A stretch of DNA of 63,941 bases, filler included, from Collodictyon triciliatum (Eukaryota): assembly GCA_043381765.1 (NCBI GenBank). It is 10 parts of 9 records of this genome, joined end to end, with 100 filler letters (N's around TTAATTAATTAA, not from the genome) between each part and the next. Parts side by side here need not be neighbours in the genome. Positions count along the whole stretch, not along the records: positions 6,875 to 15,186 come from JBHJMP010004254.1; 9 more parts are not named here. One strand, 5' to 3'. Shown piece after piece: positions 11,920 to 12,019 of this stretch; the stretch's first letter is position 1, and the number at the start of each line of letters is the position of its first letter. A program made the translations under genes and the position numbers. The notes under the pieces were generated by a model that did no database searches, had not been told where the DNA came from, and was given only the letters and a program-made list of their open reading frames with translations.

Positions 11920-12019
11920 GAGACATCAAAAGTTGTTTAAACCGATCAAGTAGCTAACACTACCTAATCAAAGAGGTATGCTAAGCTCCGTGATGCGATG
12001 CCGCAAGGTGTTGCTTTTT
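11920..12019 (+). ncRNA. RNA X copy 3 (full upstream context)
   Basis: 100-nt core nearly invariant across four copies while the flanks drift. It has a stem UACCU/AGGUA plus UAGC/GCUA, an 8-bp GCAA-tetraloop hairpin (11995-12014) and a T5 run. Confidence 0.65.

Follow-up and report, generated by a model that had tools for sequence, protein, structure and literature searches.

A U2-linked, multicopy and very probably functional spliced-leader RNA gene in Collodictyon triciliatum, and its 36-nt leader at the 5′ end of environmental mRNAs

The trans-splicing of a spliced leader (SL) is scattered across the eukaryotic lineages, and there is continuing debate as to whether it has an ancient origin or many separate ones. 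In kinetoplastids the SL RNA is ~140 nt long, its leader starts with AAC, its donor reads G/GUAUG (the slash marks the splice junction here and below), and AAGCU stands shortly after the donor. The nematode SL1 and SL2 RNAs, for which Rfam holds families, are snRNA-like molecules that pair their donor in a first hairpin (hairpin I), are encoded by multicopy genes linked to small-RNA genes, and carry a leader of 22 nt that yields very short 5′ UTRs. CRuMs, the group of interest here, branches deeply and is usually assigned a position close to the base of Amorphea.

The RNA described here, RNA X, would have the AAC start, the G/GUAUG donor and the following AAGCU in common with the kinetoplastid RNA, yet at probably about 80-93 nt it would be considerably smaller. 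With SL1 and SL2 it shares the snRNA-like character, the pairing of the donor in hairpin I (predicted in our case), the arrangement of several genes close to a small-RNA gene and the very short 5′ UTRs. It differs from them in its leader of 36 nt, in having no canonical Sm site between the hairpins, and in its lack of a match in Rfam, where a search that included the nematode SL families returned no hit on X, either at E up to 10 for the locus or at E up to 1 over the whole piece of DNA in which it lies.

In both evidence and gene organisation, the present case is closest to that of the cryptomonads Guillardia theta and Hanusia phi (Roy, 2017; PMC5619915). According to the available text of that paper, many unrelated cryptomonad transcripts likewise carry a common 5′ sequence, and GT follows that sequence in its genomic copies; the leader is invariant among copies, the genes form small clusters on either strand, and the short intron part has a U-rich motif at its end. 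There are also differences. The cryptomonad leader has 17 nt in contrast to 36 nt here, and the two sequences are unrelated; the U-rich motif is purine-flanked and Sm-like in cryptomonads, whereas it reads GC-UUUUU-GCC in RNA X; and the AG acceptors were checked in the cryptomonad genome, whereas the junctions of our system are known from contigs alone. The lineages differ as well, being Cryptista there and CRuMs here. As to leader length, the kinetoplastid mini-exon of 39 nt given in the available text of PMC2879531 is nearer to ours, both being long. Paulinella micropora (PMC6053224), as described in the title and abstract of that paper, resembles the present organism in that it lives freely in fresh water, is a protist that falls outside Euglenozoa and Alveolata, and uses SL trans-splicing, but belongs to Rhizaria and thus to a different supergroup.

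In the portion of Roy (2017) available to us, euglenids, kinetoplastids, dinoflagellates, cercozoans and a dozen animal groups are listed as SL lineages, and cryptomonads are added; CRuMs is not among the lineages named in that portion. A full-text search, outside which most subscription journals and supplements lie, found no paper linking spliced leaders with Collodictyon, Diphylleia, Diphyllatea, Rigifila, Mantamonas or CRuMs, and 14-mer and 13-mer pieces of the leader gave only unrelated matches in the full-text literature (Francisella typing; osteosarcoma). A 2026 preprint presents single-cell genomes of Collodictyon triciliatum and Diphylleia rotans; in its accessible text the word 'spliced' is used only for spliced alignments.

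An earlier note on this DNA, made from the sequence, had proposed that X is an SL RNA and that SL trans-splicing might be undescribed in its lineage. The first proposal is supported by assembled public contigs of metatranscriptome type, on which it was tested: at least 62 different mRNAs that code for proteins share a 5′ end formed by the first 36 nt of X, and we consider it very probable that X is a functional SL RNA gene whose leader is trans-spliced. As to the second, the carriers of the leader are closest to Diphylleia rotans and the searchable literature holds no linking paper, so that X seems to be an SL RNA in a lineage and supergroup for which SL trans-splicing has not been reported before.

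The window, that is, the whole stretch of 63,941 nt analysed here, consists of 10 separate pieces of 3.5-8.3 kb, and features are not readable across the joints between them. Each joint comprises 44 N, TTAATTAATTAA and a further 44 N; the joints lie at 6775-6874, 15187-15286, 22060-22159 and six further sites. Longer runs of N occupy 1301-1872, 8039-8413 and 18307-18514. RNA X is the third of four SL RNA gene copies which, together with U2 genes that they adjoin, are found within one piece of 8.3 kb (6875-15186). Coordinates of the genes and of the elements upstream of X are collected in Table 1.

Table 1. Features of the SL RNA and U2 gene cluster, in window positions.
Feature	Position	Strand	Basis and remarks
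SL RNA copy 1	6895..6987	+	exon 6895-6930; promoter hidden by the N spacer at the start of the piece
Second U2 copy, 3′ part	7976..8038	-	inverted repeat of 7882-8038 with 13476-13632; remainder within the N run 8039-8413
SL RNA copy 2	9512..9604	-	exon 9604-9569; single G-to-A change in hairpin II
Distal upstream element, copy 3	11817..11864	+	...ATGAT.CC...ATGTC..CATATGA...CACC...; common to U2 and to copies 2 and 4 (alignment)
Proximal upstream region, copy 3	11893..11939	+	GTATATATGTCCATGG (TATA-like, partly common to U2); invariant in all copies from 11920 onward
SL RNA copy 3 (X), leader (mini-exon), 36 nt	11940..11975	+	5′-most transcript start; blastn of L042; junction after 11975
SL RNA copy 3 (X), intron-like 3′ part	11976..12032	+	GTATG donor, 3′ strand of hairpin I, hairpin II, U5 run, pyrimidine tract
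U2 snRNA gene	13346..13538	+	Rfam RF00004, 170.7 bits, E 6.7e-36; RNA start ~13348 by homology
SL RNA copy 4	14521..14613	-	exon 14613-14578

A 21-mer spanning the donor occurs four times in exact form in the window (6915+, 9564-, 11960+ and 14573-), as against an expectation of 0 from 100 shuffles. In the alignment of the four copies the invariant stretch begins 20 nt before 11940. All four have the same 36-nt exon and read ...AAAGAG/GTATG, and within RNA positions 1-93 the sole difference is a change from G to A at position 61 of copy 2. The copies vary from position 94 on. The 3′ boundary given for X in Table 1 (12032, RNA position 93) denotes this limit of near-identity and not a mapped 3′ end. 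With four copies beside a U2 gene, X is multicopy and snRNA-linked, U2 being the only Rfam family that reaches its gathering score in the whole window.

The cluster can be described as two units of ~5 kb, each with one plus-strand and one minus-strand SL RNA copy flanking a segment that holds U2. This segment is oppositely oriented in the two units (7018-9406 and 12135-14494) at 94-96% identity. Such an arrangement would result if recombination between the inverted SL RNA genes had turned the segment round; an artefact of assembly or amplification is the alternative. Just past U2, a box C/D candidate (snoR1, 13527-13626 on the minus strand) reaches 22.3 bits where the gathering score is 49 (E 0.45) and is most likely a chance match. 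Elsewhere in the window, a 442-aa open reading frame (ORF) from ATG to stop (43035-44363, plus strand) is of normal-looking composition, belongs to no Pfam family and finds no relative among 5.8 billion proteins, and microsatellites, namely (AAAGAAAC)n and (TTTTTTG)n-like arrays, stand at piece ends (15287-15390 and 6656-6774). A tRNA scan found none, and no credible Pfam family was obtained for 15 ORFs of the window.

Upstream of X, alignment displays a block of ~45 bp, the distal element of Table 1, that is common to U2 (13218-13262), in agreement with the shared upstream region that the earlier note had described; a GTATA...CATGG motif is likewise common to both upstream regions. The distal and proximal elements together may act as a promoter of the snRNA type. 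Their spacing is different in the two genes: CATATGA precedes 11940 in X by 97 nt but the U2 start at 13348 by 106 nt, and for CATGG the corresponding distances are 35 nt and 45 nt, which places the upstream elements 9-10 bp nearer to the start in X than in U2. Because of this offset, a projection from U2 puts the SL start near 11949/11950, and thus 10 nt downstream of where the transcripts show it to be.

The evidence that X donates a leader comes from mRNAs. A probe consisting of the leader 20-mer that ends at the donor was scanned against a public metagenome contig collection, in which it is present in 66 contigs (L001-L066) with 16 dataset prefixes. In every one of them the 20-mer falls within the first 36 nt as counted from the sense 5′ end, and the sequence switches to unrelated coding sequence directly after ...AAAGAG (window 11975); the GTATG that continues the gene follows in none, and a GT directly after the junction is found in one contig. 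Clustering of what lies downstream, at 90% identity, yields 62 groups and therefore about 62 genes. The donor GAG/GTATG, together with the pairing segments that the earlier note had placed around it, stands exactly where it was read (TAGC 11951-11954, TACCT 11961-11965, AGGTA 11974-11978, GCTA 11980-11983, junction 11975/11976). The same 20-mer has 0 matches in genome_contigs (prokaryotic, 596 billion bases) and 0 in viral_contigs. The joined mRNAs come from environmental assemblies and not from the window organism itself; their tie to it is the identical 36-nt exon, and a search of the window for the target genes of the 66 contigs (blastn, tblastn) gave only leader matches.

The first ATG stands 0-80 nt after the junction (median 9), within 20 nt in 50 of the 66 contigs, and in 65 of them the ORF that begins with it has 215-1029 aa; the exception is L036, whose 5′ region is common to L015. 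In five of the 66 mRNAs the ATG comes immediately after the leader. The leader itself contains no ATG and has a stop in each frame (TAG at position 12, TAA at positions 16 and 26). A Pfam scan of nine of the 66 products yielded ordinary families for all nine (two GH31, two Hsp70, four P-type ATPases and one CH/EF-hand protein), and Pfam domains identify L060 as Rab GDI and L057 as SAM synthetase. Products that we recognised by eye we take to be a mitochondrial-type Hsp70 and the alpha and beta subunits of ATP synthase. The P-type ATPases encoded by two of the leader-bearing mRNAs (L030 and L043) are 84% identical as proteins; they may be paralogues of recent origin or else orthologues, in which case two species would have the same leader.

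The contigs also set the length of the leader. Upstream of the 20-mer they carry 1-16 further bases, all as in the gene with the exception of L063, in which leader position 3 is T (AATCG...). This position is C in all four copies of the window, and the difference is due either to a sequencing error or to an SL RNA gene variant located elsewhere. The full 16 extra bases (AACCGATCAAGTAGCT), with a start that matches 11940, are found in 13 of the 66 contigs, and none extends further upstream; by blastn, too, L042 aligns from window 11940. Since 13 contigs start at 11940 and none lies beyond it, the leader is 36 nt long (11940-11975), with an uncertainty of one or two bases that may be missing at the cap end. 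The earlier note, projecting from the U2 promoter, had expected a start at ~11947-11950 and a leader of ~26 nt; the start was placed about 10 nt too far downstream, and the leader came out too short by as much. Beyond the leader, L042 shows a further likeness to the gene: its positions 1-63 align with window 11940-12005 at 86% over 66 columns including the leader, and the ~27 coding nt past the leader resemble the start of the intron part. This is probably chance, although the stretch could conceivably be what is left of an SL RNA copy that had been inserted.

A junction that is sharp to one base, that coincides with a genomic GT donor, and that places the leader in sense orientation 5′ of a complete ORF in ~62 unrelated genes argues for SL trans-splicing and not for adapters or chimeras. 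If the common 5′ sequence were nevertheless an artefact (an adapter, a template-switch oligonucleotide, or a chimera formed in assembly with some abundant small RNA), one could point to the fact that the joined form is known from the assembled contigs of one public collection alone, and to the dataset prefixes, which form two numeric series and may stem from one or two campaigns. However, the leader is genomic, with four copies in the window, and is missing from two other large collections; from random chimeras one would expect breaks at many positions, and both orientations, whereas here the break falls at the same base in every contig, GT follows that base in the gene, and the orientation never varies. 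We therefore regard an artefact as scarcely credible. It is hardly more credible, and in our estimate extremely improbable, that X is another small nuclear RNA or a non-functional repeat, in which case the window copies would be relics resembling true SL RNA genes elsewhere. The cluster is indeed a mosaic of inverted and direct repeats, and X is known here from DNA and not as RNA. Against decay, on the other hand, stand an exon that is identical in all four copies and matches the mRNA leader at 36 of 36 positions, a single change over 93 nt as opposed to diverged flanks, an upstream block kept intact and shared with a canonical U2 gene, and the fact that no other Rfam family fits X. The only weak Rfam hits, CrcZ on an A-rich tract (E 0.32) and the snoR1 candidate beside U2, are at chance level. 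U1, U11, U4atac, U6atac, U7 and box C/D snoRNA had been considered for X by eye and were dropped given the leader on mRNAs. A sequencing-run search with 11800-13700 returned 9 runs with only 5-9% of the sampled words, which is approximately the share of the U2 part.

For the RNA itself, the donor falls within the first hairpin, on its 3′ strand, in both the minimum free energy and the centroid fold, with G36 and G37 on either side of the junction paired in the fold from 11940. The predicted energies are -19 kcal/mol (z -1.34) for 11950-12021 and -22.4 kcal/mol (z -1.73) for 11940-12030, the latter reached by 10 of 200 shuffles; energies of this size are not beyond chance, and the fold is thus plausible without being evidence in itself. 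Hairpin I is predicted to be long and imperfect and shows no covariation, because all four copies are identical there. Hairpin II (11995-12014, RNA positions 56-75) has a GCAA loop, and the change from G to A at position 61 of copy 2 would turn a predicted G.U pair of this hairpin into A-U; there is no other covariation among the four copies. Directly after hairpin II follows a run of five U (12015-12019) within GCUUUUUGCC and then a pyrimidine tract, and no third hairpin is predicted after the U run in the fold of 11940-12030. A canonical Sm site of the form RAU(4-6)GR is absent from the intron part, as the earlier note had stated; the nearest sequence is GCUUUUUGCC, a U run with non-canonical flanks. 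Non-canonical Sm sites occur in some SL RNAs, and Sm binding may take place despite such flanks.

This U run bears on the question of which polymerase makes X, since T5 might be a Pol III terminator or, alternatively, an Sm-like site on a Pol II transcript that ends near position 93. A Pol III transcript of ~80 nt would end at T5 with a U tail and would be bound by La/Lsm proteins like U6, with no Sm ring; it would still act as leader donor. The position of T5 directly after hairpin II, the TATA-like GTATATAT upstream, the missing canonical Sm consensus and a pyrimidine tract in place of a third predicted hairpin past the U run are all compatible with such an origin. So is the distance between upstream elements and start, which is 9-10 bp shorter in X than in U2; in plant snRNA genes such changes in spacing switch the polymerase. 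The TATA-like motif and the distal element shared with U2 do not, taken together, discriminate between polymerases. On the other side, near-identity of the four copies continues past T5 to RNA position 93, and a Pol III origin sits badly with capping, given that Pol III transcripts are not m7G-capped while the leader normally supplies the mRNA cap. On balance we think that a Pol III origin is unlikely, and we favour Pol II and Sm-like biogenesis because of the promoter block shared with U2 and because the leader normally brings the cap.

Taking X as a spliced-leader donor of the Pol II, Sm-like kind, we hypothesize the following course of events. The gene would be transcribed from an snRNA-type promoter whose ~45-bp distal element is shared with the adjacent U2 gene, and the resulting RNA of roughly 80-93 nt would fold into hairpin I, which pairs the 5′ splice site, and hairpin II, followed by the Sm-like stretch that contains the U5 run. 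The spliceosome would then use the SL donor in trans against AG acceptors situated just upstream of the start codons of pre-mRNAs, the 5′ ends of which would be replaced by the capped 36-nt leader. The very short 5′ UTRs, with a median of 9 nt from leader to first ATG, would be a consequence of this arrangement.

In order to place the organisms that carry the leader-bearing mRNAs, two of the 66 products were searched against the 5.8 billion proteins mentioned above. For Rab GDI (L060), the best non-self match is EP00002_Diphylleia_rotans at 88%, the next one stands at 69%, and Rigifila ramosa, among the matches listed, at 67%. For SAM synthetase (L057), the best non-self match is found in the same Diphylleia dataset at 87%, followed by 76%. 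A maximum-likelihood tree of Rab GDI with 18 rows (the query and 17 named matches chosen from 120 listed) displays L060 and Diphylleia as sisters with 100/100, while its deeper forks are weakly resolved. It is thus probable, on the data of two mRNAs out of 66 and of a EukProt label that could hide a culture contaminant, that the carrier lineage is Diphyllatea. Most likely the carrier is a freshwater collodictyonid or diphyllatean flagellate (CRuMs) that is related to Diphylleia rotans and is not the same species. The window organism may be the same species as this carrier or a relative that shares the leader. GC content is 32-43% in the window pieces as compared to 49-68% in the leader-bearing mRNAs, and this contrast, together with the 442-aa ORF that has no relatives, suggests that the latter may be the case.

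A further question is whether this system and that of the Euglenozoa go back to a common source. Several features could be read in this way, namely a leader of 36-39 nt that starts with AAC, the donor G/GUAUG followed by AAGCU, and the pairing of the donor in hairpin I. The resemblance is one of short motifs, and we judge shared ancestry of the CRuMs and euglenozoan systems, as opposed to independent invention, to be very unlikely. If true, it would push SL trans-splicing towards the last common ancestor of eukaryotes.

Apart from this, the finding offers several practical openings for the biology of these flagellates. The 36-nt leader is a tag for full-length mRNAs of hard-to-culture predators in freshwater metatranscriptomes, as one 20-mer gave 62 complete genes, and it is usable as a primer for leader-anchored cDNA libraries. 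It marks the true 5′ ends of mRNAs and could reveal possible operons when the new collodictyonid genomes are annotated. With its non-canonical Sm-like site and T5 run, RNA X is also a useful test case for the biogenesis of SL RNAs. For the distribution of the process among eukaryotes, a clear case in Diphyllatea, and thereby in CRuMs, adds a new supergroup to the map of SL trans-splicing.
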